Assembly (NCBI GenBank): GCA_964187785.1
Contig: OZ076409.1
Location: 44,394,001 to 44,458,000 of the forward strand
Direction: 5' to 3'
DNA: 64,000 nucleotides
From: Amphiscolops sp. MND2022
Lineage: Eukaryota
The stretch's first letter is position 1. The number at the start of each line of letters is the position of its first letter. Below the pieces are notes generated by a model. That model did no database searches. It worked only from the letters and a program-made list of their open reading frames with translations, and was not told the DNA's origin. Positions 15,101 through 45,237 of the stretch are shown piece by piece. The translations under genes were made by a program, and so were the position numbers.

Positions 15101-15213
15101 AAAAACGGGCTGCTAGACTCTTCGTGGTCTATCTTCATCATGCCATCCGGCATGACACTCTCTGATGACTCGAATTACATGAACATGTTTCGCACCATGT
15201 TTCTTAACGCCGT

Positions 15214-18200: not shown

Positions 18201-20628
18201 TTTATTTTCAAAAACAGCCATCGACCCGTAACTAACTCGAGTTAGAAACAGTATGCGCCGCGAAACCGAGAAAAATTTCGGATAGCTACCGAATAGTCTT
18301 CGACAAGCTATCAATAAGAAGGGGTCGCGTGTTTGTCGATGATTAGATCGGCATTCCTTTCGAACTTAGACAACGACTACTGCATATACTTCATTTCGGT
18401 CACCCCAGCATAACAAAGATGACATCTGAAGCGAAATCTTCTTGTGGCCAGAATAGAAACAGGACATAGAAAATAAAGTGAAAGACTGCAGGACACAATT
18501 TGCAACCGGTAAAACCCTAATTACCAATTTCCAAAAAAACACCAACTTCCGAAAAATCAAGTTAAACAAATCGTTATCACCGGAAAATTACATTACAAAA
18601 ACATACACTGTGAAGTACAAAAACTTTTCATGGCAAACAAAATTAGCAAATGGCTGTGCGTAAAAATTTGCAAAACATCAAAACCAAAGAAATAAAAAAT
18701 TTCCTATCTAGCATATTTCAATTGTACGGAATACCTGAGAAAATTTAATTCGAGAAAAGGGGAGCATTGATCTCAAGAGAACACCGGGAACGTTGTAAAA
18801 GAGGGAACATTGAAATAGAATAGTGCATACCCCAAATGCATACAAGAATTGGAATAATAGGGAGACGGTAATAACATGGAAGACGGAATAAGCTTGACTC
18901 AAACCGTGAACCGAGTGCTGCTGGTTATGCAATTTAACATACACACGGAGACTAACATAACACCTTTTGACTTCGAACATCACGAAAGAAAACCGAGAAC
19001 CGATTCAACGAACATCTTTTAAAACGGAAAAACATACCTATTTAACTGATCAGAATCATATGATCCAGCACGGAACAGACCCAAAAAACCCATGTATGTG
19101 GGTTGTGATACCAAGGGGGACATCGCCAACCACATCATAACGGCGAGAACAAAGTCTCAGGAAAAACACTTCGCCGAAGGTCCAAAGTCTCCTATGAAGA
19201 AAAGTTCGGTTAGATTTCCGTTTCCCGTGTTGAGAAAAAATATTTAAAAATCTTTAGAAAGAAACTTCCGAAACAAAATACCATCAGCAGTAAGCGGAAC
19301 CTAAAGTACCGTTAAAACAGACACCAGGAAAATATTATACCGAAAATTTGTTTCGGGACTATCATTTCAGACCGAAAGAAAACCAGGAGAGAACCGACTA
19401 TCAACACAAGCGATGAAATAAACCTGAAGAACAGGCATTGCTTGCAGGGCCTAGACGGGAAATTTGAGCGGTGGGACGCAATCTTCCGGGACATTTCAAA
19501 CAAGAGGCTGAAAATAGTCCAAAACCGAAAAGGGAGAGAGGGTGACACCAAAGACGAAGACGATGATGACGAAGATGAAGGTGGTGATGAAGACGATGTA
19601 GAGAAATGCACGAAGGATAGAAAAGCGTGGAGTAAGACATTTCATAGTAGAATGGGCCATATTGAAAGATGGGAGAAACAAAGAGCAAATAAACCCCAAG
19701 ACTACGAGACAGTTGAAACCAGAAATTTCCCCAAAATTGAGCAGTCCCTCACATGCTCACAAGGCGGGAAAACGTGCCGAACCGCCGCCGGATTGGGTAT
19801 CCACACGAAAAGATTTCATAACAAGAAAGAACCTGTCCTCTTTCCCTGCCCAAACTGCACCAGAATTTTCAGGACTAAAAATACACGGACAAACAACCAA
19901 AAGTCATGTTACGGGGAATATTCCTCGGAGAAACACAGAACACAGTACATCATGCAACAAGTCATTGTAACGGAAAAATTTCGCAAGACACAGAAAAAGA
20001 TGCCAACCATTAGAATCCCCTACAAATTTGCCCCAAGCAAGGAAAAACAAAGCCAAATACACGGAATATCCCGATTGCACCATACCCATCTCCGCCACGA
20101 ACCTGGCTCGACCTAAAAACACTTGCCGAGTCCAACCGAGAGGAGAGCGTACCCCCAGCGTGGGTAGTGAAAGCTAAACGAAAAAAAGACGATGTAGAGA
20201 TGCCGCAAGAAACGGTAGCATACCTTACGCTGGCAACTTCTGGAGATGCAAAATCAACTGTTCGATGGATATTGTATATAATACAGGTAAGTTGTGGACC
20301 AGACACAAAGGAATACCCCAGCCGGATGTAATACAGAAACTGTCGGAACTCCTATCAGGAGATGCCCCCGGAGGTCATCCAGTAGAATCTGAGAGAAAAA
20401 AAGGGAAAACTGTCATTATCGGTTTTTTCTTGCTCCTGACCTCTACTGAAATTCGGTTTATAAACTGTCTAGAAAACTAGGAGTTGTTTACCAACAAAAT
20501 CAAAATAGACATCTAATTTGAAGATACGATATAAACTTTGTAGTATCTGAAGTACAATCGGTTCGATAAAGAGATATCGTTTTAATATTATTCTCTTTTG
20601 TTAGTTATTCGTTCGGTAGAAAAGAACA
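15214..20628 (+). mobile_element. Old, degenerate Ty3/Gypsy element C with ~220 bp LTRs
   Basis: Diverged direct repeats 15214-15438 and 20411-20628 (TGTCAT...AAAGAACA). PBS TGGCGCA at 15439 and a purine tract before 20411. RT remnant FYGLPNIPSIFQ...AWLDDLIV (16503-16721) and RNase H remnant ELEFLAVLWALEEFRFYLYG (~17210). Confidence 0.85.
19605..20185 (+). mobile_element. 5'-truncated LINE fragment (C-terminal zinc-finger region) inserted in element C
   Basis: Exact 15 bp TSD AAGACGATGTAGAGA (19590-19604, 20186-20200) and an A-rich 3' end. Encodes GKTCRTAAGLGIHTKRFH and FPCPNCTRIF. Confidence 0.75.
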
Positions 20629-22570: not shown

Positions 22571-23797
22571 TTGAGCACCATTCTCAAACTTGTGACATCA
22601 CAACGTCAATAATTATCACAGCTGACTTCTAGAGAATTTACTTTAGTTTGTTATCAATTCAACCCAGTCCAGACGCGGACTGTGACATGCAGGCTATTTT
22701 TTTTACAAACTGTAGAAAATTCAGGGATCATGTCTGGAAAATTTTTGTAGGATTACAATGCAGCTTCCACTATATCAAATGAGTCTGAAAAAACTTCCAC
22801 TACTTCAATGTCGCGATCACTTTGTTTTCACGCGTAAATTTTTCAAGTAAGCGTCTTATGTAATCACCCTCAGCCCAACTTCACGCTAAATTTGACGCTA
22901 CCTTGAAATCGATAAAGTGACCGAAGTATTTTGCATGAAATCGGCGGTTAAATTGATGAGGTCTCAGATGCATTCAAAGTTAGAATTGCTTCTTAATGAA
23001 ACCTGCAAAACATTGCGCCACGGAATTGCTGCCAAATCTAGGATGAATCCTATAATAAAATCAAAAACTTAAATTAACTTGAATCAGTGAAGTTTTAAAG
23101 CATGGAAGACTCCTTGAGAATTTTATAAAACCATGAAAAAATAGTTTGGTGACCTACAAAACATAAAAAGTGCCCATGAAAAGGCTGGGAAACCAGCTTT
23201 TCTGTTCGAAGTGTTGATCAAAAACTGAGTCATATCTTTTGCACCACCTACGAAATCCTTGTTATTTTCAAAAATAGCAAACAGTATTTTGACAGTTGCA
23301 ACTAAAACTATTCGGATTTTGATATTTTTTTGAAGAAAATGCAGAAATTCACCCCCGGAGTAAGCTAAAATTGTATAGGAAAGCCTCTATTCTAACACCA
23401 CTTCTCCACACCAAAAATAGGAAAATGAATCAGGGTTGCAACTCAGGGTTCTAATGTTTTGTAGCAAGTGACGAAACAACATCTATTCCCCCCCCAACTG
23501 CGGGGAAACAAGACAAAAGGTTCAAATATCATTGTCGACATCGTTTGCGTTGAAATTTTGGTCCAATAAAACAATTGATGCCGACATAATTCTATCCCTT
23601 ACATTGTCAGTCACTAGTTGCTCGTTAGATTTTATAGCGGACAAAATTTGCGTTGAAATAGGGGCCTTTTCATACAGTTTTAGCTTGTTCCAAAAGTAAA
23701 TTTCTGCTAGTTTGGACAATAATATCAAAAACTATGGTGATTGTTTTTGCCTGAAGTGTCCAAACAGTTGTAGAAACAACCCTCTAAGTGTTTACAT

Positions 23798-25024
23798 CAA
23801 GGCTGTGCAAATAATAAATGCGGTTTCACTTATTGACAATAACATAATAACATAGCCGGAATGAATGAATGTTAACAGAGTGGTTAAAACATTAATTGAA
23901 TGAAACGAGTTCGGCTGTTGAACAATTATTGTCCAATAGGATTTCTCGTTTTCTAAAACATCTCAAACTCAGTTTTAACATATGTTTTTGAATGGAACAT
24001 TTTATGAAAATAACGTAGTGCATTGGCTGAAAATTCATTTGCAGCATGTAATCTGGTTTCAGCATCGCGCATCCTGATTGGCTAAAACTCAGGGCATTGC
24101 ACGGAATTTCACAGGGTAAAATAATTCTAGCACTGTTACATACGTGTTATTACCGCAAATTATATTAGGTTGTCTAATAAATCCATTGCCATGAGCTTTT
24201 TCACTGACATTGGCAATGAAACATGGCAATGTCGCTGTGACAGAAAGCGATAACGAAGCTTAAAAAGAGGCTATGGCAACTTGATGGAGCATATTAGATC
24301 TGACCATCCGAACTATATTGACAAAATAAAAAAACGCGCAAATCCTATTGTTTCGAAACTTGCCAAAAATCGTTATGGATGGCTGGAGTGGATTGTTGTG
24401 AATGGTTTTCCGTTCAGCTTTGTAGAAAATGAAGTGAGCAGAAGATATACAAACTTAGAGCCAATATCACGTCGAACCTTGTTAAAAGACATGCAGAATC
24501 TGAATGTGCGAGTTGAAAAAGATATAGCCAAAAAACTCCCAAAAAATTAGGTTTAGTTATTGACTGTTGGTCCGATATGGATACACCGACCAACTATATG
24601 GCAAGTTATGCGGTCTATCAAAACGGTTTTCCACTTCTGGCATTCTCTCCTCTAGTAATTTGAAGATTCGAATTCGAATTTTGCCGAAACCGTTTTGGCT
24701 AAAAAGATCCAGACCAGTATTGATTTGGAGTGGATACCTCCGACTTTCAATCGCGCGGAACGACTTTTTAGCAGAGTAAGATATGTTCTCACTGACTATA
24801 GAAAAAGTGTTTCTCCAGTCAAGCTCGAAGCTCAAATATTTTTACATGCAAACAAGGAGTATTGGACAGTTTTTACAAAAGAGATTTCGAACTCATATCC
24901 TGATGATAAACAATAATTGTTTTCATTAACTATAATGGCAATAATTGATTTTTATGATGAATCATATTGTAATAATTGATTGTTGTAATCAATAGTGTTG
25001 TCAATAGCATAATACAGAGCCTTG
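23798..25024 (+). mobile_element. Internally deleted hAT transposon
   Basis: TIRs CAAGGCTGTG / CAGAGCCTTG. 8 bp flanks GTTTACAT / ATATACAT. Encodes a BED-finger end (EHIRSDHP), WIVVNGFPFSFVEN and WIPPTFNRAERLFSRVRYVL. Confidence 0.85.
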
Positions 25025-25090
25025 ATATACATTCAAATAAAATTCTCTTATTAGTGAATTATTTGGACCATGTCATTTTTCCCCGACCCC

Positions 25091-25717
25091 CAGGGGTTGG
25101 CAATAAATAATAATTTTTTAATTTATTGACAATAAATACAATAAAATAATTTATTTTTGACAAACAAAATAAAAACTATTTATTGTCAAAGTTACAATTA
25201 TTGGAAAAAATTATTGCTTCAGATTGACATGTAAATAATCGACAAGCAAGCTACAATGAATAGGAAATTACTGAAAAGCCGTTCCGCGCGATAGGAAGTT
25301 CCACGCTGTGAAATCAATAGACGAACTCGTTTCATTCAACTATTGTATCAACCACACTTTGATGCGTGATGGCTAGCTTCACGAATAAAGAAATTGTTGC
25401 GCATTATTTCAAACAGAAATCAAACCAGGAATTTAAGTGCCTGTGTGGTACTTTTCGAAAACAATCGAAAGGCGCTGGTTATCAAAATTTATTGTCTCAT
25501 ATACAAACTAAACACCCAAAATTACTACTTGAGTTTAGAACCTAATTCAATCAGCATGAACCCTAAATTTGAAAGGACGGAATTTAAAGTTTAACAAATA
25601 TTTTTTTATTTGAGAGCAATTAAAAAATAATTTAAATAATTTAATTTGATCAGACAACAAAAAAAATAATTTATTGTTTGCAACAATATTATTGCAATAA
25701 TATTGTGCCCACCCCTG
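25091..25717 (+). mobile_element. Non-autonomous hAT element with BED-finger remnant
   Basis: TIRs CAGGGGTTGGCA / TGCCCACCCCTG. Flanks CCGACCCC / CCGAACCC. Peptide FKCLCGTFRKQSKGAGYQNLLSHIQTKHP at ~25430-25520. Confidence 0.8.
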
Positions 25718-26067
25718 CCGAACCCCCCCCCACGAAAGAACATTTTGTTCTTGAATATAAATATTTCATAAGACATATGAGAATAATATGAATATTATCA
25801 AAGAATAAAGAATACTATATATTACTAGAATACTATATAATCATACTATATAATACAATATAATAATACTATATAATGTTACTAGAGAATACTATATAAT
25901 AATATAGTTTGGACATTTCAGGCAAAAAATTACCATAATTTTTTGATATTATTGTCCAAAATAGCAGAAATTCAAGTTTGGAACAAGCTAAAATCGTATA
26001 AAAAGTGCCATATTTCAACGCAAATTTTGTCCGCTATAAACTCTAATGGGCAACTTTTAACTGACAG

Positions 26068-27150
26068 TGTCGGAACCACTGTCAGTACTTGTAGTTGCTG
26101 GATTCAGCCTGTTCCCTTCCCCATTAACGGAGGCAAACTGATTGGTCAGTGTAAGGACGATATTGGTAAGGTCACCGATTTGTCTATTTATCTCATTAAA
26201 TCGTTGGTCAATGTTATAACTGTTACCATTTTGACGTCTAGTTAAAACGTTGTCGGAGTCAAGGTCTACCATTTGGTCTCTGGATAAAAGTTCAGGGAAA
26301 CTGGCTTCACTTTCGTTATCGCTTGATCTATCCATATTTTCAGTATCTACTTGTCTATTTTGACTACTTTGAGATCTGGTAATTACCATGAAAGGTCTGG
26401 AAGTTTTAGGTTGAATTGAAATGTTTTAATGTTAAAATAAGGATTGATAACTCGTAAGCAAGGTAGTAGGCAACTGGTTATATCAATGGTTACAACTCGT
26501 GAAAGAGTTCGGTTTTACCCGATTGTGTAACTATAAAGGTGTGTTAGCACCTTTCCTTTTAGTCAATGACATTCGATTTACTAATTGCTGTTTAATTGCA
26601 CTTGACGACTGGTGGCTACAGTCGTGACGGGTGATAATCGGCGTTTAATTATTCATGTTTGATCCAGTATGACCGCAAGCACCAGTCATTTTAGCACGCA
26701 ATTGTCTCAATTGCCTCTTAAACTGAGGCTTTACTACGGCGTGTTCTTATCATCATGGTGACTGATTCAATTATCGTTTGGAGGATAATTACTAAAAGGC
26801 ATTGTACAAATTGCTAATATGAATGAACGAAATGTAGTTGTTATGAATGATTGAATATTCTGGTAATACTTTACATGTAATATAAAAAATGGATGATGAA
26901 TGATTAAATCACAAACTATCACGATAGCTGATGACTGATTGTTTCAGTCTTGGTTTCTAAACGATGCACAATAATATGAATGAATTTAGTATTGATGACT
27001 GTTAGTTCCAGTCGTTATACTCTCAACTGTATTGTTCGGGGAATAAATTACTGCAATGTATTTTCATGATGATCTGTATTTTAGGGAGTTTGATGTATAA
27101 ATTAATGTTTTAGAGTTCGTTTAATTCCTTCATGCTTGGCGGGCATGACA
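26068..27150 (-). repeat. 3' LTR of element A
   Basis: Direct repeat of 39895-40977 with roughly a dozen substitutions by eye. Includes a copy of the Gag N-terminal ORF (26057-26389). Confidence 0.97.
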
Positions 27151-27165
27151 TTCCCCCCCCTTTTT
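27151..27165 (-). promoter_or_regulatory. Polypurine tract of element A
   Basis: Minus strand AAAAAGGGGGGGGAA directly abutting the 3' LTR. Confidence 0.92.
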
Positions 27166-27968
27166 GAGAGAGAGCAGGCTGTAGGGGTAATGGGTAAGGT
27201 GAACGGTCGAGTTGAGAGGTAGCAGATATCTGAGTGGAGTATTGAACAGCGGCTGAAGTGGCATGCAAGGTATAGAGAAACGCGTGGGTGGCAATGTAGC
27301 TTCTGGAAACATTCGGAAGCGTGAATGGACAAGGTGAGGCAGGCAAATAGTAGGTAGTCGGAAGTTGAAGTCTATTTATAGAAACGGTTTGACAGCCACG
27401 TCATCCGTGTAGTGCGCATTGAGTGTGATGTTTGTTTAAGCAACTTTTCATCGATCATCGGCAGTTGATTGATTTGTTGTGTTGCCATAGTGAAAGTCAG
27501 TCGAGTCAATTACTGTTTGAATTGAAATTTGATCCCGCTTTAATTTGAGAGTATTCACCTCCGTTTGTCAACCTTTTGCTCATTCTTCCACAATGATGAA
27601 AATATGTCCATGTTTTGTTTTTTTGCACTGTTAGTCCTGTGTTTTTCGGGTATCGCTTGTACTGATAAGATTGTTCGGGGAGTTAGTCTTTTTTGGCTGG
27701 GAAATACGACTGCTTTCTTTCTGCTTCTTGTAATTAGCATTTGATGTCTGGTGGAAGTAGGTCCAAAAATATGGTTCCTTGAATGTCCAGTATTACTAGA
27801 GTAAAACTCTTTGATGAGGAGATCAGGTATCCATTGTATATTGGAATAGGTGATCAGTCTATAACAACAATAAATGGAAGAATGAGCTTTTGCAGTCGTG
27901 TCTTCGTCGCCGATTATTATTTCCCCGGAGAGTTTCAGTTATTTCCTTTTCTCCCAGCGTTATCCAAT

Positions 27969-30900
27969 ATGCCTGATGATGAGGCAGGTCAGTCCTTTGG
28001 TCCCGGATTAGCTGAGTTAGTCGCTGAAGTGGAGAATCAGATGGCCGGAGAGGGGGCTCAGCTAGGTGGAAGTGCAGGCGATCTGGAGTTATCAGGATTA
28101 TTGCTGGAGACTAGTTACTGCTGTCAGTTTGCGGCTCGGGTATCTTCTGCTAATATCGCTGGTTTAAGCGATTTATTGGATGTCGTTCTCTCCCAGGAAT
28201 TTGGTAAGTGCTCACTTCGTATATTGTACTACTATCAGTGGTATGTCTAAAGCGTAAGGGAGAGTTAAGTCTTTCCTTCAAGTTTGTATACTTTCAAGTT
28301 TGAGTCCCGTAATGTTAGGGAGTGTCAGGCGTAGCATTTTAAATAGAGTGTTCTCGTGTTTGTAGCTGATGTCAACATGTCCGACGTGGTCAGTTATTTA
28401 CGTCGCTTTCGTGCTACGATAGCCACTGGAACTGCTGAGGGTTCTGAGACGGAGGCGGCGCCCATCCTTCGTCGACTGGATGCCTTTCTGACATCGCAAC
28501 TTGGTAGGTGAATTCACGGTTACTGTGAAGTTAAGTTATCTGCTGGGGGGGTCTTTTGGTTCTTTTGTTGTTCAATACCAATGCATGCAGTATACGGTTG
28601 CTGTTCTCTAACCAGGCGGTGATAGATGCCTTCAGTCGTTGAGTCCAAAGTAGGTGCTATGAACTAAGGGTTACTTTGCAGATGCCAACGTTCGAGCTGA
28701 TGTCATTGTGGGGCAGTTCACTGAATTGTTTCAACGTGTAGAACGGGAATTTCAGCAGTGGGTGAAGGCTGCAATCGAGTCTAGTTTGGGTCGGCTAGGG
28801 ACAGTGGGTGCTCTCGCTGTCGAGGAATTCCTGGACAAAATGAAGGAAGCGTTGCGAGAACTGGGTCAAACTCCTGTCGTTCCCCGTGGTGGTGAGACTT
28901 CTTCTCTACCACGCTCTGTAGCTGGGAGCATCTCTGGTGTGGACGATCGTCGTACGGCAGTGGAATCTGATGTGCCGTCTGAGTTTGGAGAAAAAAGCGT
29001 CGTTCCTTCTGGGGGGACTTCGTCCGCTGTTGTCTCCACATCAAAGCCTGGTAAGAACTCTCAAAAGATCATGTGAGGGGTTTTAGTTTCAAGTGGTAAA
29101 AAAATAAGGGATGTATATAACGTACTACTACTGCTTAAGGACAAACACGTTTTTTTTTCGAAAGGTTTTGGCTGGACAGTGGTGCTATGTGATTTATGTT
29201 GTGTGTTAGCAGGACGGAAGCGTGCTATCAAAACGTTGAAACCATCATTTTTCGTTTCTGGGGTCGTGGGGACCTTCGGTGGTTTCCCCCGAAACAAACG
29301 TGTGGTGGACGGATTCGCAAGGTGTCGTCTGTGCCGCGTTGATTTAAGTATTGCCGGACGCGGGCTACATAACTTGTGGGATTATTGGAAGGGGCGAGAG
29401 CACACTCGTCTTGAGCAGCGCTTCCGCATCATGTCTAATAGGCCTCTATTGGACAAGTCCTGTAGGCCCGTGTCATTGGACGAGGATCGGAGAATTCGGA
29501 CAGCCAGAGTGTCAGAGCCACCTGTCATTCTGGAGTCAGAGGTGAAGCTGACTGTAGAAGAGCGGATTGCGGTCGAATTAGAAGAGGAGGCAGCTGGTTC
29601 GAAACCCGAGTTGTCGGAGTCCAGTGCTTCATACCTCTGGCTATGCTGCTTCATCAATAACTTTGTTGAACTGAGGGACTTTTCAAGCGTTGTGCGGTCC
29701 ATGGAAGTGTGGTCCAGTAGCATGCGGGGCGAGCTGGTTTTCAGTGAGAGGGTGCTATCATACCCGAAATGTCAGGTAATACATGTTTTGTTCGTCTCTT
29801 TTTTTTGTGTTGTGTTCGTGAAAGTTGGTTCTTGTCTGCTAGTTCGTGTTTGCAGTTGCTGACTGTTTTCATTGGCAGTACTTGCTGAGAAGTGTCACCG
29901 TTGTATATTTGTTGTAGAGTCTTGTGTTATACGGCCTGTATCCATTTGTCATGGAGAAGCTGAGCGATCCACTTTCTGCTGGGGCGCGGTTTGGTCTGCA
30001 CGTCCGTACTGATGGGTCGTTGAAGCGAGTGGATTGCCACATTTTTGACGCTCTGACAGTCAAGATGGTTGTGTTAGCTGCTATTCCTGGTGGTGGTGAG
30101 TGGAAACGCTCACTACTCAAGATCATTGTCTCTGTTCTGGCCTGTGTGGAGTCTCATGCGGGTCTGTGCGCTGTGAGTGTGGGAGAGAATCTGCGTCTCG
30201 GGCGTGCGTTAGCTAGCATCGCGCACCCAACCATGACTTTGGTTACTCGTCGTCTCGATGTGGACTGGCTGAAGGATTTGCTGCGGCGCACGTTTCTACG
30301 AGAGTTGAGTGGACTGGAGCCTTTCTGCGTGTTGGAGTATTTCCGGTTCCGCTTAGCCGCCGTCATCGGTGGTTCGTCGTTTGACAATATGCCAAGGCTT
30401 CGAGAGGTAATTGATTTTAAGTTTGTTAGCGCGTTTGTTGTTCTCTTTTCGGGGACTGGTGTGAGTATGTGTGGTAATGTGTGGTCGTGGTCTGCTTTGT
30501 TCTAACTCGGTGCTAAGTGGTGCTGCGCGCTTCCAGGAGTTGTCGGCACTGTGCACCGAACTTGTGGAGCGATGGGACGACCTCGGTGCCTACTTCGGTG
30601 TTCACCGGTCAAATACTGTGTCCGAATCGCGGAGTATAGCCAGTATGGAAACTCAAGTCTTCAACGATGCTTTGTCGAGGCCGCGATTTGCAGTTTTGAA
30701 ATTTCTGGCAGAGACAGGTCAGTATAAGAGTTTTGAGTGTTACTTGTGTACGGGTGTGTCGGTACTATTTTTGTTGTAATTGTTGATTTGGGTGTTATCG
30801 ACGACTGAGTTGTTAGGGTGTGTAGTTTCTCGACATTTTGTTTGTGATTCGCCTGTGTGTTTCAGTTGTTGCAAAGTGTCCTCGCTTGTGTTCTGCTGGG

Positions 30901-32145
30901 CGAGATCGGAACTTGTGGTTTGAGCGGGAGCTGGCTGCTTTCCTTCGAGAGTTATTGTGTCTGGTCGTCGAACACTCATCGTTACCACCTGATTTTGAAG
31001 TCCTCGCCGTGTTGAAGTTGCGACTGGGCGAGAGTAAGCCTGTTGACAAGGCCCGATTTGAAGTGCTGTTCGGCCAGTACTTCCGCTTCGACGTGGTCAG
31101 CCAGAAGCCTTTCTTTTATAAAGAAGTGCAAAATTTCCTCAGGACTGTGTGCGAGTCGTGCATTGGCGATTATGACCAAGGGTGGGTTAAGCAGCTCAGC
31201 TTGTTGTCGCTGGATCCTTATGCTATACAGTCGGTGTCAATGGATCGGCTGACAGACATCCTTGTGGGTACACTTTCTGTCCTCAGCTTTGGGGATCTAT
31301 GCAGAGGAGATCAAGGTGCCATCATCTTGCAGCAGTATCGCGAGGTAGTCAACTACTTCAAGCATCGATGGGAGTCCAATGCTTCGGTGGTGCCAGTTAT
31401 TGACGATGCCATGTCTTTGTGGCTGTCATATCCTTCGTGAGACCGGTGCCAAGAATTCCGGGGCATTGTGGAGATTCTTTTTGTGGGAATGCTCCATGAT
31501 TCGTATGCTGCTGATTTTCAGGATGTAGGAGACACAGCCCTCGATGACGGTATCATGCTGTCAAGTTTGAACATTATTCGAAGCTGGATGTCGAGTGGTT
31601 TCGGCGGGCATTCTCGACTCTCGATGACTGGATTTGTTAGACACTGCAGCACTACAGACATGCAGGTTTCGCGGTTAACCGATGAAGGCAGAGCTATCCC
31701 CTGGGACCAATTGGTTAAGAGGGGGGTTGATGAATCGCTTGGGCGCTGTGTCACAGTACTGGAGACGACTGGTGGACTACCTACTCGCACTGTCATTGAC
31801 CATTATGTGTCTGCTGTTTGTAATCAGTTGCGGACAATGGAGTCGAGTCCAACTGCTCCCCGTCGGAGTCCTGTCAAATCAAGGCGTTCAGCAGCTCAAG
31901 CGCCGAAATTGCAATCCGAGGTCGTAGTGTCGTCAGCAGGTCCGAGTGAGTCAGCTCCGAAGCGCAAAGCAGTCAGTAGGACGTCAGGGGGCAATCACGG
32001 ACAGAGGACCGGTGGGAAGCCGGACAAGAAAGGGAAGCGCACTCTGGCTACCTTTGAGACTGAAATTGTACAAGCCAGCAGGCGGGCTTTTTCACTCGAA
32101 GAAAGCAGTAACGAGGGCGGCTCCAGCCGTTCTACAGAGTATTAG
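27969..32145 (+). CDS. Antisense cargo gene of element A: ~1084-codon zinc-finger, hAT-transposase-like protein. Predicted exons 27969-28203, 28366-28503, 28682-29050, 29213-29775, 29918-30406, 30537-30717, 30866-32145. One in-frame TGA at 31438-31440.
   Basis: All six GT-AG junctions are phase-compatible and join open frames (3255 nt total). Homologous exons and intron positions in element B. CxxC finger FARCRLCRVDLSIAGRGLHNLWDYWKGREH. The start codon and the exon 4 and exon 6 acceptors are less certain. Confidence 0.8.
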
Positions 32146-33890
32146 TTGGCAGAAGGACTTGTATTAGTAATCAGACTTTCCATATTTCTTTGTGTATTCA
32201 GCTTTTTGTGTATTTATTGAGTTCTGATATTGTGATTTGCTTTATATGCTGTAATTTTTTTTTGTTTTGGCCTTAGTAGGTCTTGCACTTTCTAGTGATT
32301 TAAATAGATGGTTGCAACCGTCATAGTACTCTTCTTTGTTTTTCCTTAGGACTGGACAGTTCGGACGTCACAAGAGGTTTTTCACTTGTTTTGCTTGTAT
32401 GTACGTTTATGCATGATGCTGGACTGGCTTTGTCTTTCTTAAGTGTGTGTATGGGGTAACCCATACTTCGCTATGGTTTCGAGTGGACTTACGCTCTAAT
32501 TGTTACGGCGTGTTCAGGGAATTTATTGAGGAAGTTCATGTTGGTTATGGTTGTCACTGTGGTAACCATTAGCATAAACATTTTTTTTACGCGTCAAACT
32601 GTGCTGTGCATGGTACTCGAGAGCCAGGTTTTCATGTAAGTTGTTAGTGAAGGCTCGAGAATGGTAACGAGACATTCAGACCAATGGCCTTCCAGTCCTT
32701 AGCGCCGCACTGTAAGGTACGTGACTGAGCAGCTTGTTCATTACGATGACGGAAGGCTCAAGGAGTGTATCCTTGGTTTGATGCATGACTTATTTTGTGT
32801 GTATGTAATATTCATGTTATAATTTTTAGGGACTTTTTTACATGTATTTTAGTGTGTTTCAATATATTACATGTAGCGGTCTGTGTACGCGACGTCATCA
32901 TCGTTGATGTGTGTCCTGGGACGTCATCATACGTGATGTGTGTCGTCAAGATCGCGAGTTCTTACATTATGTTAACTTCGGTGGTAGGAAGTTGTTAGAC
33001 TGAGAACTATGGGTGTGTGTAGATTTTAATACTAAGCAGAGGTTGGGGCCGCGCACTCCTGAATTTTTTCCCAAGCGAGGCGAAGCCTTCGCATATCTGG
33101 TTACTTTTAAGGGGTCGGGTATTCATTGTTTTCTGAATTTGGCAAGCTCTTGTTCTTTACCGGCGTTGTGTTATCGTCTATGGTTGGTTTGTTATTTTTG
33201 GTGTTCAGTTCATTGGAAAAGGTGAATTCCCGTCGGAACCACCTATGCAAAACTAACACTGAATCCAGTTGCTAAAGAGCAACCTTCATCTGTATGGTGA
33301 CGACCAACCACACAAGCGCGCTTTTCGACGACGCACCCACACAGCCAGCACTATGGGTTTACGTCGAAATGGGTGGAGTATTGGTTGTGTTGTCTTAACG
33401 TTTTCCAGGCAGCAGGTCGTCACTGTTAGTTTGTTGCGCTTGTAGAGAACGTTGTTTTCGTTCACGTTTCGTTAGTTGTGTTTCGACGGTTTTCTAAGCG
33501 AAGTGTTTCGTTTCGTTTGTTGACGTGGTAGTTTTGGTGCGAATTGACTAAATTATCGTTCACATTTTTGCGTGCTACGTGTGCTTCTGGGCCGCAAGTG
33601 TTGGGATGATTGGCGTTTGCAGTCGTTGCGTTACCGTTTGTTTGCTTCTTACGTAGTAGTTGACGCTAAGTAATTAGACAGCTCAAACAGTGACGACGGA
33701 AGTGGATGGTCATTTAATCGTATTAATTGGATTGTGTGCTAGGTTGTCCGTAATTTTCAATATTGCTTGTTGAGTACTGGTAAACAGGGTCGTAATTGTA
33801 AAACAATTACTTTTACGGTCAAGGAGCGAGACTGTTTATGACTGCTGTTAGCAGTCGTTGGTTTGAGAAATGCAATGAGGGATGGGTGTT

Positions 33891-36800
33891 TTACAGGTTT
33901 CTGTTTTTCAGAAGTAACTGTTGCAGTGAAGGCGTACCATGTAATTCGTGCATTAAGAAATCAGGGTACGTGGTAGGTTTTGGGTTGTGTCTGAGCCCGT
34001 ATCGAGACATGGTGTGTCGTGATGGCGCTGGAGGGCGATCATTTGTTTGGTGTTCAGAATTGTTCATGCTAGCATTATCCGGTTGTGGTTCTTGTGTTTC
34101 AGCCTGGCTTTCAGGTATGGAGATGTTTTGATCAGGTTCTATGTTTTGCCGTTCGTAGTAGATCATTCCATGGTCTGCGTGTAACTCTTCGAAGTTTGAT
34201 TGTTCAGGTATTACTTGTTGTGGCTGTTCATGGACATGATCAGGTAGGTTATTGTCAAATAACTCCTGCTCGTTGAGGGCGTCAGGATCTTCGAAATATC
34301 GTGATGCATTGTCTTGAATGTCTTCGATTGGTGCGTTTGGCGTGAATGGGCGAAGCCTCCTTCTGTGAACGCATTGGGTGCGAAGAGTGCCAATCTTACG
34401 TATGATGTAATTTGAATTTGACAAGACTTTGACCACTTTGTATGGGCCTTCCCACTTGAATTCCTTGAATGGAATTTTTTCAGATTGCTGAGACAGTCTT
34501 TTGTTTAGCAGAAAGGTGAAATCATTTACTTTCAGAGGTGAAGCTTGCGCTTTTCGGTCGTAGTAATTCTTGTATTTGTGAAAGGCTTCGATTATGTTGT
34601 CATGTGTTTGTTGGAATTTTTTGTTCATGTTATATAGTATTCCAGTGACGTCAGTGGTGTTACGTTGTTCGGTTAATGGATGGCTAAATTTGACGTCAAG
34701 GGCATTGAACGGAACACGTCCGTGGAAAACTTCAGTGGGTGTGCATCGGATAGCCTGGTGGTAGGTCGTGTTATGGGCCATTACGGCCATGTTGACGTAT
34801 TTGTGCCATTGCGGTGAATCAGCTGAGATGTTGATTTTGAGAATTTGTTTCAGTTTTTGATGGGAACGTTCAACCATCCCAATCGTTTGTGCGTGTTTTA
34901 CAGAGGCATGTTCGATTTTTATACCGGCAGACTCCATCAGGGAGTTGAGCAGTTGAGATGTGAATGTCGTTCCCTTATCAGTTAAGATTGTCTTGGGTAC
35001 ATACGAGTGTTGCGTAAAGATTTGCATGAGTGCTTCCACGACCGACTTTGTGTCTGGTTTACGGATTGGTATTGCGAAGAGGTACCTAGAAAAGTAGTCG
35101 CATGCAGTGAGAATGTGTGTGAATCCGTTGGAAGGTGGGAGTTCACCGACTAAATCAATTTCTAGTATGTCTTCTGGTCCGTTGCAGGGGTCGTATATTT
35201 GTTGAAGTGGTGGTGTGATTTCAGCTTTTCGGATTGGTTTTGAGCGGATGCAGTCCTGGCAGTTCGAGACGTATTGCAGTACCAGTTCAGAGAAGTTTGG
35301 TGAGTAGTACCTTTTACGCAGTTCATGGAGCATTTTGTTACAACCAGGGTGACCTTGCAGAGGGTCATTGTGCAGGGATTGAATGATTTTCCGAATGGTT
35401 TCAGGGGGAGTGACAACTTGTTTACACTTGATTTTACCTGTACCATCAAAAAAATTCCTGTACAAAACGTTGTTCACTACTTCAAGTCTTTTCTTGTTTT
35501 TAACTAGTTTTTGGAAAAACTGACTTTCAAAGTTCACATGATTAGGAAGGGTTTCCTTTTGGTTCAAAATTCTAATCATGCGTTGGATGTCAAGGTTTAC
35601 GACTTGATCCTGGATGATTTGAAACTCCCCATTGGGGCATACCTGGTTTACCACGTTGTCATGAAGCTTTCGTCTGAATCTGGTGAACGTCATCTCGTCA
35701 TGTTGCCCTGTGATGATGGGTGTGATTTGATGACGGATGGTTTCTATCCTCTCGAGAAACTGTCCACTCGATTCGCTGCTGCACATGGGGACCTGGTTCA
35801 GGATGGCTTTGATGGCTTCATTTTGTTTGGTGGTGGTAGTGTGTTGGTCATCAGGTATGTATTCTTCTTCTTCGTCGTCCTGCTTGGGTGTTCTCGATGC
35901 CAGGTCGATCTCGACGTGGAAGACTGGTATCTCGTCGTTGAGTTTGAGGTGTATTCTTTCCTCTGGTCGTATGTCAAGACGAGACAGGTAGTCTGCAGCA
36001 GGGTTCTCAGTTCCAGGAACGTGGGCAAGTACGAATTCGAATTGGAGCGTCTGATCGCAGTAATTCCATAGCTTCGGGGAATCCGTTTAGACTGAAAAAA
36101 TCGGGTCAGTGCTTTATTGTCCGTCATTACTATTGTTGGTTTCTTGACACCCCAGAGTATGTGTGCGAATTCATCGAATGCGAAATGCATCGCCAGGAAT
36201 TCCTTTGCGTACATTGTTAGGGACATTTGGCCCTCCGTGAATCGTTGGGATCCAAATGATACTGGGGCGTACGTTTTCAGTGGTCCATCGTTTGTTTCGG
36301 TATAGTCTTCTATCAGGAGGACATATCCTGCCGCATGCTCGCTGGCGTCGCACATTATAACAAGCTGTTTATCGGGTAACGGCAGACGCAGCGAAAGTTT
36401 CGCAGCTTTGGCAAGATTTTCATTAATCTCGAAGATGATGTCCTTGTGCTGCTGGGTCAACTGGAATTTGACGTCTTTTTGAAGTAGTTTGTACAGTGGG
36501 GTGAGTTTTTCTGCTAGGCGTGGTATGTACTGCCTGTAGAACTGGACAAACCCGATGTACCTTTGGAGGGATTTGATTGATGTGGGCAATTTTATCTTCT
36601 TGAGGAAGTCGTCGATCTTGTCTTCGAGTGGGGCGACACCCTTTGATGTGATGCTTCTCCCGAGGAAGTCGATCTGTGGGTGGCCAAACGCACATTTTGA
36701 CATCGACAATTTCAGTCCTGCTTTTTGGATTTGTTGGAACACAGCTTCAATGTTTGACAGTAGCTCATCTACAGTGTGGGCAGCAATCCCAATGTCGTCG

Positions 36801-38695
36801 ACATATTGGGCACATTTATCCGCTTTCACCAGTGCATCAACGTATTCTCGCACCGTGCTGTTGAATGCTGATAGGGATCGGTTGAGTCCTTGTGCCAGTC
36901 GTAGATAAGCAAAGGTTCGACTTCCAAAATTAAATGCCAAGAGTTGTATGGATTGTTCATCCGCCATCTGCAAACAGTGGTACGCCTGCGAGCAGTCCAG
37001 CTTGCAGAAGTACTTCTTCCCTGCCATGTGCTGGGCGGCGTCGGCGATGGTGGTGACTAGATGATTATGTTGGTTGTAATCATTTTTCAAGAGGTGGTTG
37101 ATTCTGCGCAGGTCTACATGAATGCGAAGTTTCCCATTGGGTTTGCGCTGGGCAAATATTGGTGAGGAATACTTGCTGTACGGCAACGTCGTGATGATCC
37201 CGTACTCTTGCATCAGCGCTAGTTCGACGAGCAGGTCATATTTGAGGTTGGTGGGTGTAGGTAAGCTCTGCGCGTAGACTGGTTCATCATGCTTCGGAGT
37301 GAGTTTGATTTTGAAGTCAGTATTGATGCCTATGTCGAGGCGGTGTCTGGCGAATACATTGTTGTACTTCACAAGGAGGTTCTCAATTTGTTGTTGTTCG
37401 TGTTCATTCGGGATTGAGTTCTCCCATTTGAAGTTAGCAAGGAACTCCTTGCGTTGTTGGTCGTCTGCTGTTGGGTCCAGTTTCTCTTCTTCACGGAGTT
37501 GAGTGATTTCGTCATATATCCGCCTTTCAATGCGGTTCAGCTTGGACGGGTCGTCACATGTCTCCGGGGTTGGGTACCATCTGCGGTTGGTTTCAGTGCC
37601 GGGTTCCTGGAACAGTTGGTTCAGTACGTTGTTGGCTTCGTCCGGGTATTTGGTTATTAGTGTCAATTGTTCGTTTGACATTAGTTGTAGGTTTTTTGCT
37701 TGATTGGGAGTCATTATTTTGAAGGTGGCCACTGTCGTGTTCGGGTTGAGGGTAATTGCATGGCAAGTGAGGTTGGTGATCTGGACATGGCTTTTCTTCT
37801 CAGTGATTTGCGTTAGGGCGGGGGACACCAGTAATTGTGTCTTCCTTTCAAAGGCAGGAAAGGTTTCCACTGTGCCCTGGATTGTCCCGAGTTCCCTTTC
37901 TGCTAGGACGGGGACAATGATTTGGTGGTCCGGTTGTATGACTGTTTTCTGTGTCGTTCGTAATTCGATCATCTGGATTTTGTATCGTCCTCGTTCTGGT
38001 TTCAGTTGCAGGGTAATATCCGGGAACTTGACTACGTTGTTGGCAAGGTCAAGTGTCACTGAGTACTTTTTGAAAAATGACATTCCGATCAAGATGTTAC
38101 CCATGGTTGGAAGAATCATGAAGGTTTCCTCGAATACTTTACCTCCGATGAAGAAGCGAAGTAGTACCTGTTTCCGGACCGGGACGATGCTTCCGTTTGC
38201 GATTTGGACTTTGAAGTCCGGTGCTGGGTACTCTTCGAGAAGTGCGGCTGGGTGTGCAGACAGGATTCGTCTGAGTTCGTCTTCTGACATTGCACTTCTT
38301 ATTGCTCCTGTGTCGAGGAGTCCGTGGTTCTCGTATTCTCGGAATTGCAATGGGACGTACAACATCTTGTCCTTTTTGTTTAATTGGAGTGTTGCTGTTA
38401 ACACCTGGATCGCCACGTCTTTCTTTCGGTTCATTGTTTTCCTTGTACAGTCAGTCGTTGTAGTCGAGTTAGAGTGCTGTTTGTCTTCTGTCGTTTGTAA
38501 GTTCACGTCCGTTGGTTCGGAGGGAGGGTTCACTTTGTCATTGGTTGTTTCGTGGGTAGTTGTAGTCTTAGGTTTCTGATCCTGCCGAAGATCAGTTGCC
38601 CGGTTTTTGTAGTTCTTTGTGTAGTAGTAGTTGTTCATGTTGCGCACTTTGTTATTGTAATAGTCAGTCGGATGACGTGGCTTCAGAAGTTTTTT
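33891..38695 (-). CDS. pol: Pol polyprotein (protease, RT, RNase H, integrase), split by a 1-bp deletion near 36076
   Basis: LLDTGA, YVDD, MCDAS, HHCC (HNDPLQGH...CQDC), DDE (EIDLVG/TDKG/ERSH) and WEGPY motifs. Restoring one C in CCCC gives KRIPPKLWNYCD...ADYLSR in frame with ORF 33891-35786. Confidence 0.95.
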
Positions 38696-40216
38696 GGCTG
38701 GCTGGATGATCCTTCGGTGAATTCCTGTTGGTAGTAGTCATCACTGGTTTGCTGTTGTTGGTCCCCTGGTGCAAGTTCGTTCATTTCATTTGCTGGGTAA
38801 GGAGTTGTGTGCTCTTCGGAAGTCGCGTCGGAAGTCCCTGTTTTCATTTGTGGTTTGCCTATTGTATGGCACGCTTCCGTAGGCGGAGGTTTGGGGTATT
38901 CTGTAACGGCAGTCTTTTGCGGAGTGACCTGTATATCCGCAAATTTGGCAGACCAGTTTGGCATTGTATTTTGGTTGTGTTTCTGCGTTGTTATTTTGCT
39001 GTTCGGGCTTTTTCTGAGGTTGTGAGTTGTTGTTGCCTGCTGCTTCGTCACGCAGTCGTTTTCGGCACTCAGCCCATTTGTGTCCGTAAATTGCGCAGTA
39101 TCTGCAGTTGCCATCGAATTTCTTTTTGATTGTTGGTCGTTCGTTTTCGTTCCTCTTCTGAACAACTGGCTTCTCTGGGACTTCTTGTGTCTGGATAGCT
39201 TGGTTGAACGGTTGGAGGAGTTGTTGGTTTGGTAGTAACTGGGCATATTGACATCTTCTCTGGACGAATGTTTTGATGTCTTCAATGCTGGCATTGTGTT
39301 TTCCTGCAATTGCCAGTTCGTTTTGGAGCTGGATCGGTAATTTGGCAAATAGGAAGGTCTGGACAATTTCCTGTGCCTTTTCGCCGTAGGCTTGTTTGGC
39401 AATCTTTTTGTAATTGGCGAGGAAGGTACTGAATGACTCAGTGGCCGGATCGTATCGTAGCTGGTCGAATTTGAACTTCGAGACTTCTGAGAGTTCTTCC
39501 TTTGCGTATTCTTTTTTGAATGCCGTCAGTATATCTCTCAGTGTCGTTTCTGTCATGATTGTTAGGGTTTGCCAAAACTCAATTGCGTCATCTCTGAGAA
39601 GACTCTGAAAGTAGTTGAGTTTTTGTTCTTCGGTTAGTTTGTGGGCATGTGGTCGTAAGTGGTTGAGCAATAAACGCTCGAATTCATTGTATTTGTCTCG
39701 ATTTCCCTTGAATAGAGGTATTTGGGTCTGCAGGATTTGTGGATGGGTCAAGGTTTCCCCCATTGTACTGCGGAGATGGTGGATTTCCGTCATCCCATCT
39801 GCTATCTGCGGAATACTTTCGTCACTCCTTGGTGTCCCGTTGGGTGGTGTTGTTCGAGATCCTGATGGTCGTGGGTTCGAGACTCCTGTCACCATGTCGG
39901 AACGACTGTCAGTACTTGTAGTTGCTGGATTCAGCCTGTTCCCTTCCCCATTAACGGAGGCAAACTGATTGGTCAGTGTAAGGACGATATTGGTAAGGTC
40001 ACCGATTTGTCTATTTATCTCATTAAATCGTTGGTCAATGTTATAACTGTTACCATTTTGACGTCTAGTTAAAACGTCGTCGGAGTCAAGGTCTACCATT
40101 TGGTCTCTGGATAAAAGTTCAGGGAAACTGGCTTCACTTTCGTTATCGCTTGATCTATCCATATTTTCAGTTTCTACTTGTCTATTTTGACTACTTTGAG
40201 ATCTGGTAATTACCAT
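38683..40216 (-). CDS. gag: Gag, starting inside the 5' LTR. Probable 1-bp insertion near 38800 truncates the annotated ORF at 38786.
   Basis: Retrotransposon gag core (IPLFKG...LRDDAIEFW) and two CCHC knuckles, CRYCAIYGHKWAEC and CQICGYTGHSAKDC. Removing one base joins it to ...YPANEMNEL...QPKNF*, which ends at the slippery site. Confidence 0.92.
38689..38695 (-). promoter_or_regulatory. -1 ribosomal frameshift slippery heptamer A AAA AAC (gag/pol)
   Basis: CAG CCA AAA AAC TTC TGA ends gag. The -1 frame reads KLLKPRHPTDYYNNKVRNM straight into the pol ORF. Confidence 0.8.
39871..39894 (-). promoter_or_regulatory. Primer binding site (tRNA-Leu-like)
   Basis: Minus strand TGGTGACAGGAGT directly after the LTR, followed by TCGAACCCAC complementary to a tRNA T-arm. 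Confidence 0.8.
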
Positions 40217-40977
40217 GAAAAGTCTGGAAGTTTTAAGTTGAATTGAAATGTTTTAATGTTAAAATAAGGATTGATAACTCGTAAGCAAGGTAGTAGGCAA
40301 CTGGTTATATCAATGGTTACAACTCGAGAGTGAGTTCGGTTTTACCCGATTGTGTAACTATAAAGGTGTGTTAGCACCTTTCCTTTTAGCCAATGACATT
40401 CGATTTACTAATTGCTGTTTAATTGCACTTGACGACTAGTGGCTACAGTCGTGACGGGTGATAATCGGCGTTTAATTATTCATGTTTGATCCAGTATGAC
40501 CGCAAGCACCAGTCATTTTAGCACGCAATTGTCTCAATTGCCTCTTAAACTGAGGCTTTACTACCGCGTGTTCTTATCATCATGGTGACTGATTCAATTA
40601 TCGTTTGGAGGATAATTACTAAAAGGCATTGTACAAATTGCTAATATGAATGAACGAAATGTAGTTGTTATGAATGATTGAATATTCTGGTAATACTTTA
40701 CATGTAATATAAAAAATGGATGAAGAATGATTAAATCACAAACTATCACGATAGCTGATGACTGATTGTTTCAGTCTTGGTTTCTAAACGATGCACAATA
40801 ATATGAATGAATTTAGTATTGATGACTGTTAGTTCCAGTCGTTATACTCTCAACTGTATTGTTCGGGGAATAAATTACTGCAATGTATTTTCATGATGAT
40901 CTGTATTTTAGGGAGTTTGATGTATAAATTAATGTTTTAGAGTTCGTTTAATTCCTTCATGCTTGGCGGGCATGACA
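39895..40977 (-). repeat. 5' LTR of element A
   Basis: Direct repeat of 26068-27150, followed on the minus strand by the PBS. Confidence 0.97.
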
Positions 40978-41194
40978 GACAGTCAATGTAAAATAGGATT
41001 ATGTCGACATCAATTATTTTATTGGACTAAAATTTCAACGCAAACTATGTCGACATAATGGTATTTGAACCTTCTGTCTTATTCCCCCCCCGCTGTAGTT
41101 TGGGCGGAAATAGATGACATGGTGCAAATATTTTTATTCAAGAACAAAATGTGCTTTCGTGTTGGGGGATATTTTGCTGACAATATTTTGCTGT

Positions 41195-41370: not shown

Positions 41371-41683
41371 GGATCTCTTTCACTATGTCCCCCCCCCCCT
41401 ATATCACTCGTTACACTATGTCCCCCCTAGAGAGAAAGAATGTTTGTGGCCTATTTATATTCATCTCCTATTGGCTAATCTCAAATGCTCTGTCAATCAA
41501 TTGATCTCGTCATAACTAACGACCCTTTTTATTGGTTCTTATTATGAATCCCCACTCAGCCAATCAGAAGCGTTGTTAGATAAGAGCAGATCTGCGCTAT
41601 TAGAATGTGCAATACATGTATTTAATAGCGTTTCACTATGTCCCCCCTTTTTGCTGTAGGGGGGGATATAGTGAAAGAGATCC
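41371..41683. mobile_element. MITE with 8 bp TSD (Merlin-like); second, left-truncated copy at ~46089-46385
   Basis: TIRs GGATCTCTTTCACTATGTCCCCCCC / GGGGGGGATATAGTGAAAGAGATCC and TSD AAATATTT. The empty site is visible at ~41124-41172. Confidence 0.8.
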
Positions 41684-42824
41684 AAATATTTTTATTCAAG
41701 AACACAATGTGCTTTCGTGTTGGGGGATATTCCAACAAGGTGTACCTGGAGGGGGGAGGGGCGGGTGTAGGTAAGAGATGACATGGTCCCAATTATTTTA
41801 ATGAATTGAATTTTCATCGCAAACGATGTCGACATAATGCACCATGGAGTTCGAACCTTTCTTATCAAGAAATATTGAACGAATTCACACTGGTTTGAGT
41901 GGAAACTCGTATAAGGCTTGATGAAACACGATCGATCGCTTTTTGCAGCATTCACAGACGCACTAGAATGTACGTATCTTTTAGTCTTTCTGCAGAGGTC
42001 GTTCACTTTGATTGATTCTCCGACTGTTTGACATCAAAATATTATTGTTTGGCTGTGTGTGTCACTTGAATTACAGCACGCGTTGAACAAATGGAGTTCG
42101 ACTGGTTGTGATGTTTAAACACATGAACAGACCGAGATTTTTGACTCATATCGCGTGAACAAACTATTATCGTTAATTTAACTTCTAATATTGATGTCAG
42201 TAACGAACTTCATTAGTATACGAGTTCCAGTGGGTATAATAACGCCCCATACTTGACTTTGACATTAAATTGAAGCATAAAACTTGGCATTTTGATATAA
42301 ATGGTCTGATTTCCATTACATGTATACAAGGCTATATCCATCTTATTCCAGTTTCCACCCCTCGGTGTTATTGAAATCGTGATAATCGGCTGCATCGGTA
42401 CTCTTTTGACTTTCGGTAGTCGGTCATCAAAGCAGAATCTTGAGTAACCAACTAGATCTGCTATTCAACCTAATGTTTCGACTTCTCGTTTCGTTTCCAA
42501 TTGAACATTCAATCGGCGAATTAGCGAGCCAATGAAATTATCGAACGCTGTGACGTCACCATGTCTTTGATTCTGCTCCGATAACTTTAGACACGAGCAA
42601 AACATTCTCTTACCATTTATCAAACCAATTTTATATCGCTTCACTTGCCGCTCGCTGCACAGAACTAAAATTAAACTGACTGGTACGATTATATGACGTG
42701 TAAATCTAGTTCACGCACAAAATTTCACGACCTCTGCTAAAAATTTTTATGACCTCCAATAAACTGCGGCAACATTACATACCTTTTAATTTATAGAAAC
42801 ACATCTTTGAATTGAATTTAAAAT

Positions 42825-43946: not shown

Positions 43947-44293
43947 TTTTTAACTTCCATTTTGCTGGTGATATCAATTACTTGATCATTTGTGTTCATC
44001 TAGTACCTTGTCAATTTTTATTGCTCTTCGTGTATTTGTTTGATATGACCCTTGCAAACTCTTAACTATTCATCTTAGGATGACGGAACTTTCTGAGTAA
44101 ATTTCTATTACTTGTTTTTGTGCTGATCTGAAATTCTACCAAAAATGACTTTTAAAAGACGTAGCTTTCTTTACTTAGAAAAAGCCCATGGAAAAGAAAA
44201 AGCACACGAAAACTAACATCGGCGAGTTTTCAGTGGAAATTCATTTGGAAAAAAAACATTGATATCCTAGGTTGAAATCCTACAATTAAATTC

Positions 44294-45162: not shown

Positions 45163-45237
45163 GACGCTGTACAACAAAGTACAGAAGTACGCTAAGTACA
45201 GTAGTTTTTAAAAATTTTAATCTGTAATTGCTTTAAC

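Follow-up and report, generated by a model that had tools for sequence, protein, structure and literature searches.

A multi-intron antisense gene of probable hAT ancestry carried by a Ty3/Gypsy retrotransposon family in Amphiscolops sp. MND2022

The window, as we call the whole stretch of DNA analysed here, comprises 64,000 nucleotides (nt) of the Amphiscolops sp. MND2022 assembly GCA_964187785.1 (contig OZ076409.1, positions 44,394,001 to 44,458,000) and contains, on its minus strand, a 14.9-kb Ty3/Gypsy long terminal repeat (LTR) retrotransposon, element A. Between the integrase and the polypurine tract (PPT) of this element lies a gene, termed the cargo, which runs opposite to gag-pol and comprises seven plus-strand exons from position 27969 to 32145, amounting to 1084 codons. 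An earlier reading of the letters alone (the sequence-only reading) had described a Gypsy element bounded by LTRs and a target-site duplication (TSD), and this is borne out by a 3′ LTR at 26068–27150 and a 5′ LTR at 39895–40977, each 1083 nt long with TG..CA ends and with 12 differences between the two, flanked on both sides by the TSD GACAG (26063–26067 and 40978–40982).

Pfam matches to gag, protease, reverse transcriptase (RT), RNase H, and integrase follow one another in Gypsy order on the minus strand. Together with the paired LTRs, the short TSD, the PPT (27151–27165, with a junction identical in six of the eight long loci introduced below), and a primer-binding site (PBS; 39877–39894) that starts with TGG and adjoins the LTR at 39894, these place element A in Ty3/Gypsy. 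The pol gene is divided between two reading frames, one holding the protease, RT, and RNase H (35798–38737) and the other the integrase (33891–36086), in which Pfam noted no chromodomain; no Rfam match was found anywhere in element A. The gag gene (38786–40216) begins within the 5′ LTR and its frame is open across the PBS, with the same start seen in the LTR portions 39895–40216, 26068–26389, and also 9451–9771. Given that gag starts inside the LTR, each 3′ LTR, including that of element A, holds ~107 gag codons.

The cargo opens with an ATG at 27969 in exon 1 (27969–28203), upstream of which an extra non-coding exon is possible, and continues through exon 2 (28366–28503) and exon 3 (28682–29050), the latter encoding a helical part and then a low-complexity linker. 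Exon 4 (29213–29775) encodes a BED-like C2H2 zinc finger and is the best conserved of the seven, exon 5 (29918–30406) aligns with the opening portion of the RNase-H-like core of hATs without keeping its catalytic motifs, exon 6 as readable in element A spans 30537–30717, and exon 7 (30866–32145) encodes a helical region and then a basic, disordered tail in which RTGGK is conserved. All six introns in element A are GT-AG and 130–178 nt long, with phases 1, 1, 1, 0, 0, and 1. The proposal of at least seven phase-compatible antisense exons making ~1080 codons thus stands as a spliced gene model; the intact frame and the exon-6 acceptor read in element A do not. This copy is broken by an in-frame stop at 31438–31440 in exon 7 and has one zinc-ligand position altered, and a 21-nt deletion near 30517 has removed the intron-5 acceptor, which lies upstream and is kept in 29/29 close copies, so that the exon 6 start at 30537 is a cryptic site.

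A second copy in the window, element B (9450–15165, cargo on the plus strand), is a remnant comprising an LTR with the gag start (minus strand), a PPT, decayed cargo exons 1–6, and pieces of exon 7, within which its frameshifted cargo ends early. As no pol was found for element B in the window, the earlier statement that it holds the same gene in the same position is correct for the gene and for its place beside the PPT, and not for its place relative to pol.

To follow the gene across the family, eight 10-kb loci (L031–L038) were hand-picked for diversity, to ~37% cargo protein identity, and their intron boundaries were set by a spliced-alignment script, except the intron-5 acceptors and two donors in L037, which were placed by hand. 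In these long copies GT/AG was present at 93 of 96 splice dinucleotides, the six introns lie at equivalent positions, and the script placed nearly all of them at matching codons and in matching phase; in 29 close copies, 343/348 splice dinucleotides are kept. Intron lengths range from 111 to 266 nt across copies, and when subfamilies are compared, most pairs have intron cores that score about as shuffled sequence does, with exons scoring higher (exons 5 and 7 are 34–40% identical between the two main groups). This agrees with the earlier claim that the introns are mostly unalignable while the exons keep the peptide, the exception being introns 1–3 of L035/L037, which score 0.65–0.77. The plus strand is G/T-rich and so favours chance GT-AG, but this does not explain the shared intron positions; shared positions, variable lengths, and near-random cores together argue that the GT-AG pattern is not due to chance. 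TTTATT, which reads as a poly(A) signal on the strand of the genomic RNA, occurs nine times in the 48 introns of L031–L038, where 17.3 occurrences would be expected; a count this low arose in 7 of 500 shuffles, and the deficit is weak given that the introns are related.

Selection on the cargo was gauged by the ratio of nonsynonymous to synonymous substitution rates (dN/dS; Nei–Gojobori, exons 3–7, 754–956 codons), computed for 15 pairs, 10 of which were saturated. The ratio was 0.075 for A/L032, 0.036 for L033/L034, and 0.064 for L035/L037; this range between subfamilies (0.036–0.075) is far from 1 and matches the purifying selection by which the aORF-3R class of antisense genes, discussed below, is recognised. 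Zinc-finger exon 4 is the most constrained exon, and 82 of 99 exon-7 matches listed are stop-free. On the other side, two young pairs gave 0.41 and 0.82, which is not purifying selection and fits decay after insertion. Read from these conserved signals, the cargo is very probably a real, spliced gene under selection.

The 1.07-Gb assembly was searched with exon 4, and 150 scored matches, which do not give a copy number, were listed from 3832 candidates. Integrase lies 3.3–12.6 kb downstream on the opposite strand for 114 of the 150 exon-4 matches listed, one more has another geometry, and 35 have no listed integrase; no same-strand cargo–integrase pair occurs among the matches listed. Conversely, a listed cargo exon 4 accompanies 121 of the 140 listed integrase matches, a linkage of the kind that characterises the aORF-3R class. 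The collection of copies suggested with the sequence-only reading therefore places the cargo mainly within LTR elements, between pol and the PPT side as expected.

The 35 matches without a listed integrase were pursued individually. In three, an LTR lies where one would be expected, one has an integrase in its 10-kb locus (L035), and the remaining 31 were probed upstream, where 24 show the LTR end and PPT or a conserved upstream motif (none on the control strand), four match LTR or upstream sequence, one of them weakly, and the last three have no element sequence at the expected distance. Two of these three, followed downstream, have no integrase and instead an inverted, internally deleted second cargo; one of the three, followed upstream, reaches LTR/gag sequence beyond a 4-kb insertion. 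All but two or three of the cargo copies probed could be placed in element sequence, and none was shown to lie outside it. Nor was any pair of terminal inverted repeats (TIRs) or TSD, including an 8-bp TSD, found around the cargo, as examined in element A, in agreement with the earlier statement. With the linkage, the intron positions, and dN/dS of 0.04–0.08, this supports the earlier view of an old, selected accessory gene and no chance nested insertion.

Several structural variants were seen among the copies. A rearranged derivative occurs at two loci (L214–L217, on G000:C6 and C12) and carries the inverted second cargo with its internal deletion and an LTR piece, and one of these two derivatives has ~4 kb inserted in intron 1. 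Exon 7 is tandemly repeated four times at one locus (G000:C13:45783329-45791787) and exon 4 twice at another (G000:C7:3343742-3345908), and L032 lacks ~1.9 kb between the cargo and the integrase core, the integrase C-terminus included. Among the matches listed, 16 exon-4 matches have an identical score, which points to recent amplification of cargo-carrying subfamilies.

The history of the cargo was compared with that of pol using trees of nine rows, in which integrase stood in for RT as not all loci reached RT. Two main groups are identical in the cargo and integrase trees. The synonymous divergence (dS) of L033/L034 is 2.1 in the cargo and 0.016 in integrase, that of A/L032 is 1.5 and 0.20, respectively, and L037 pairs with L035 in the cargo tree (100/99) and with L036/L038 in the integrase tree (100/98). 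Directly after the cargo, identity between L037 and L038 jumps from ~60% to 93–98%. The conflict between the two trees rules out co-divergence of the cargo with pol and indicates that the cargo has been exchanged as a cassette between pol backbones. The phylogenetic comparison proposed earlier thus came out negative for co-divergence; the pol lineages are far younger than the cargo alleles they carry.

Conserved sequence is also present outside the cargo exons. A CCACGTCATCC-type motif (27395–27420, plus strand) lies 250–400 nt inside the PPT in elements A and B and in 8/8 long loci, and recurs in 22 of the 31 additional copies probed, never on their opposite strand; it likely marks an internal promoter of the cargo. 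The motif resembles what we take to be a bZIP site (XBP1/ATF6/CREB3-type), a likeness that hints at stress-driven cargo expression. Between the cargo and integrase lie two non-coding blocks that are 78–85% identical between the main groups, above the cargo exons. One (32891–32944) contains two GACGTCATC-type repeats. In the other (33204–33346), the two main groups agree at ~80% of positions; its start is a TTCAG on the plus strand, hairpins may form, and Rfam has no match to it. One block folds into hairpins with 3–4 two-sided changes among six related sequences, and the blocks may serve in packaging, export, or regulation, or may include one more antisense exon. In the otherwise variable cargo tail, RTGGK/R (32005–32025 in the window) occurs in 22/37 tails against 0.3 expected and QS(E/D/A)V in 22/37 against 1.0 expected, the rows being related in both cases. 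RTGGK presumably resembles part of the histone H3 tail; a profile of the cargo tail found nothing when compared with the PDB.

The insertion site of element A is a repeat with TIRs (23502–26070 and 40978–41088), and a decayed hAT-like element is present beside it at ~23600–26070. Elsewhere in the window, positions 41389–50791 hold a 4.7-kb tandem duplication, 99.9% identical, with two open reading frames (ORFs; 156 and 182 amino acids), which is either genuine or an assembly artefact, and two more stretches, at 15900–19300 and 59600–63200, look like decayed retroelements and are strongly strand-skewed.

The identity of the cargo protein was approached via its zinc finger. The exon 4 finger has the form C-x2-C...H-x5-H, and its four ligands are conserved at 94–99% (C 102/103, C 101/104, H 100/106, and H 105/107), in keeping with the N-terminal BED-type finger of hAT transposases. 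The commonest weak Pfam match, below cut-off, was zf-BED, in 8 of 56 rows; one alignment, in which exon 5 was stacked on exon 4, served solely for member-wise Pfam scanning. A hAT clade that we take to have a similar (HGG-type BED) finger guided the choice of templates, which were retrieved by a DNA pattern; four of five tested match the hAT dimerisation domain, two above cut-off. Choosing templates by the finger motif makes the finger match circular, a first point against hAT ancestry, so the rest of the protein was tested without it, by comparing a profile of exon 4 (after the finger) to exon 7 with a 290-row hAT-clade profile. The two align collinearly over the splice junctions, and at both settings tried the score exceeded that of all 200 block shuffles (Gumbel P 6e-5 and 1.2e-4). 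Decoys comprising pol, integrase, gag, and Ac- and Tip-type hATs were not significant, 5 to 34 of 60 shuffles reaching their scores. Past the finger, at hAT-like spacing, is the strand that bears the first catalytic residue in hATs.

Further points weigh against a hAT derivation. Other reference columns gave P from 3e-4 to 6e-2, no single exon is significant alone (exon 7 being the weakest), and HHalign without the finger gave E 0.02–0.08 with off-register matches, which is not significant. No Pfam match over cut-off was obtained for the cargo protein, none of 62 exon-7 rows matched Dimer_Tnp_hAT (PF05699), and two AlphaFold models, built on single exons or an intron-containing ORF, were of low confidence (predicted local distance difference test scores of 52 and 38). 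The best HHalign segment against an Ac-type set falls on the dimerisation domain (E 0.88), and a fold search with a low-confidence model placed Hermes (8edg) at rank 22 (Z 4.7, root-mean-square deviation 18.0, 160 aligned). On the strength of the finger and the collinear finger-free profile match, we nonetheless consider it probable that the cargo protein derives from a hAT transposase.

Any such transposase would no longer be catalytic. In the column of the first catalytic D, all 34 rows have R/F/H/Y, CxxH and RW are likewise not conserved in their columns, and an ERxF-like word occurs in 8 of 262 exon-7 rows, versus ERxFS in 9/10 templates; a second acidic position is E in 22/35 rows. Given that the first D of the DDE triad, CxxH, RW, and ERxFS are not kept, the cargo falls outside active hAT transposases. 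No family could be assigned to the protein by searches of Pfam, PDB sequences, Atlas, or folds, sequence searches returned unnamed relatives only, and no Transposase_28 (TRP28) or plant mobile domain (PMD) match was found via Pfam. The hATs of Ac and Tip type present in the assembly did not match the cargo significantly, and DUF4371 and a finger DNA pattern gave nothing above control in the genome. The genome does hold 44 matches to hATs of the related finger clade, which are remote from the cargo and not close donors. No cargo relatives were found in the metagenome or viral contigs searched; distant relatives such as P0243 (~28% identity), to which nothing in this genome is closely similar, hint that the system may be old and range into other species.

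Plant Tat/Retand elements and fungal Boty also have antisense genes in the interval from pol to the 3′ LTR, according to the available portions of the sources cited here (PMC7264820, PMC11963269, PMC4408406), the plant cases being restated in PMC8220671 and PMC12786077. This aORF-3R class (Grande gene23, RIRE2, Retand TRP28 PF04195, and Boty) is, like the cargo, antisense, located between pol and the 3′ LTR, and present in most copies; an internal promoter is shown for Grande, and the proteins are described as probably nuclear and DNA-binding (PMC7264820; PMC11963269). The genes are presented as plain ORFs of unknown origin, with no intron mentioned in the available text of PMC11963269, while that of PMC7264820 reports no similarity to other transposable elements and calls for a search for spliced antisense transcripts. 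The cargo differs from this class in its six conserved introns, its length of about 1090 codons, the lack of a TRP28/PMD match, its probable hAT origin, and its cassette exchange. A multi-intron or hAT-derived antisense gene of an LTR retrotransposon was not found in the literature searched, a scope that leaves out Repbase, Steinbauerova 2011, and Gomez-Orte 2013; the last two reportedly may describe introns in plant extra ORFs. While antisense extra genes as such are known, what is new here is the probable hAT origin of one and its cassette exchange with pol.

With hAT transposases (the HGG-type BED finger clade, of which Hermes is the solved example), the cargo shares the finger and the collinear order of core elements. 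It departs from them in that the first D, CxxH, RW, and ERxFS are not kept, TIRs are absent, extra N- and C-terminal regions are present, and the gene lies within an LTR element. Accessory genes derived from a transposase or chromatin protein, as the cargo would be, are described in available text for Spm TnpA, VANDAL VANC, Gypsy PMD, and the ATLANTYS ASY2-like gene (10.64898/2026.08.24.746577, PMC13547354, PMC5418596, PMC4408406). TnpA and VANC serve DNA transposons, whereas the cargo would be a class II protein serving a class I element; in the available text of the TnpA preprint (10.64898/2026.08.24.746577), "LTR" and "retrotransposon" occur 0 times. Among animal Gypsy elements, bdelloid rotifer LTR elements (non-env ORF3) and planarian Burro show, in the portions available, that captured genes are shared between retroelement types (PMC5408684, PMC6431247). 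Their extras are either ORF3s, expressed by way of spliced mRNAs, or parts of a polyprotein; the domains are of esterase, exonuclease, or apoptosis-related kinds, and no antisense multi-intron gene appears in those portions (PMC5408684, PMC6431247).

These features can be arranged into a putative history. A Gypsy ancestor would have taken up a hAT DNA transposon gene in reversed orientation between integrase and the PPT. There, the terminal repeats and catalytic residues of the captured gene would have disappeared, while the zinc finger and the scaffold of the transposase persisted; ~250 residues at the N-terminus and the basic tail would be either ancestral or later additions. Judging by its conserved signals, transcription of the gene would start at an internal promoter shortly inside the PPT and run opposite to gag-pol, and the host would splice the transcript. 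Antisense introns remain in genomic RNA and hence pass through reverse transcription, as those of the cargo would, the genomic RNA being of the opposite strand. Selection on active lineages maintains the protein, as the dN/dS values show, and recombination near the cargo 3′ end, visible in the tree conflict and the identity step and presumably due to template switching, swaps the cargo and its PPT/LTR side between pol backbones. The protein itself may be a nuclear, sequence-specific DNA-binding helper that acts on cis-sequences of the element, aiding its transcription or shielding it from silencing. By analogy with TnpA, VANC, and Grande gene23, the chances that the cargo is such a helper, promoting transcription or countering silencing, seem about even. 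TnpA is itself derived from a transposase, and catalytically dead transposases are known as regulators, according to the available part of 10.64898/2026.08.24.746577. A narrower version is tentative, namely that the retrotransposon domesticated a spliced, antisense, catalytically dead hAT protein to bind its own DNA against silencing, with RTGGK as a possible chromatin decoy. Equally tentative is the part of this version in which old cargo alleles are retained and reshuffled among young pol backbones, a pattern that would match an arms race with small-RNA defence.

Other roles are conceivable for a hAT-derived cargo. It could act at integration, binding host DNA or chromatin and tethering the pre-integration complex to chosen sites, as the constraint on the zinc-finger exon, the position of element A in a TIR-bearing repeat, and the integrase without a Pfam chromodomain might suggest; cargo alleles, however, reassort freely among near-identical integrases, which a tight cargo–integrase interface would resist, and we regard this role as unlikely. 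Transposases that have lost catalysis but still have their DNA-binding and scaffold domains can also be dominant negative, and the cargo might therefore be a repressor or decoy that limits element copy number or poisons related hAT transposases, with less harm to the host. The 44 matches to related-clade hATs in the genome would be in line with this, as would the silencing capacity of antisense transcription noted in the available text of PMC7264820. Yet the nearest genomic hATs are only remotely similar, making mixed complexes improbable, and the carrier subfamilies have amplified recently, going by the 16 exon-4 matches of identical score, so this explanation too appears doubtful.

Two further explanations concern what the cargo is. 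It might be real and selected and still not hAT-derived, having been captured from among the host genes or encoding a novel BED-like finger protein: standard tools brought no known family to significance, and six introns are more host-like, 10 long hAT templates being single open frames. The collinear finger-free profile match, unequalled in 200 shuffles, and the strand of the first catalytic residue following the finger at hAT-like spacing make this improbable. Least credible by far is a mere passenger, an active or recently nested DNA transposon. The hAT-like ancestry would suit it, as would the three copies without element sequence at the expected distance, two of them without integrase and with an inverted, deleted second cargo. 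It is disfavoured by the lack of TIRs and TSD around the cargo of element A, by catalytic motifs that are not kept, by position and orientation that are fixed at saturated dS, and by the exception traced upstream, which still adjoins LTR/gag sequence.

The antisense genes of LTR retrotransposons are a long-standing puzzle, their origin and function being given as unknown in the available text of PMC7264820. If the hAT derivation is true, the cargo family offers a traceable origin for such a gene, in which a class II transposase was captured by a class I element, with a multi-intron structure of the sort that ORF-based annotation misses. Its many recent copies and natural recombinants, in which different cargo alleles accompany near-identical pol, make the role of the cargo testable. 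One kind of transposon would then have turned the enzyme of the other kind into a helper protein.

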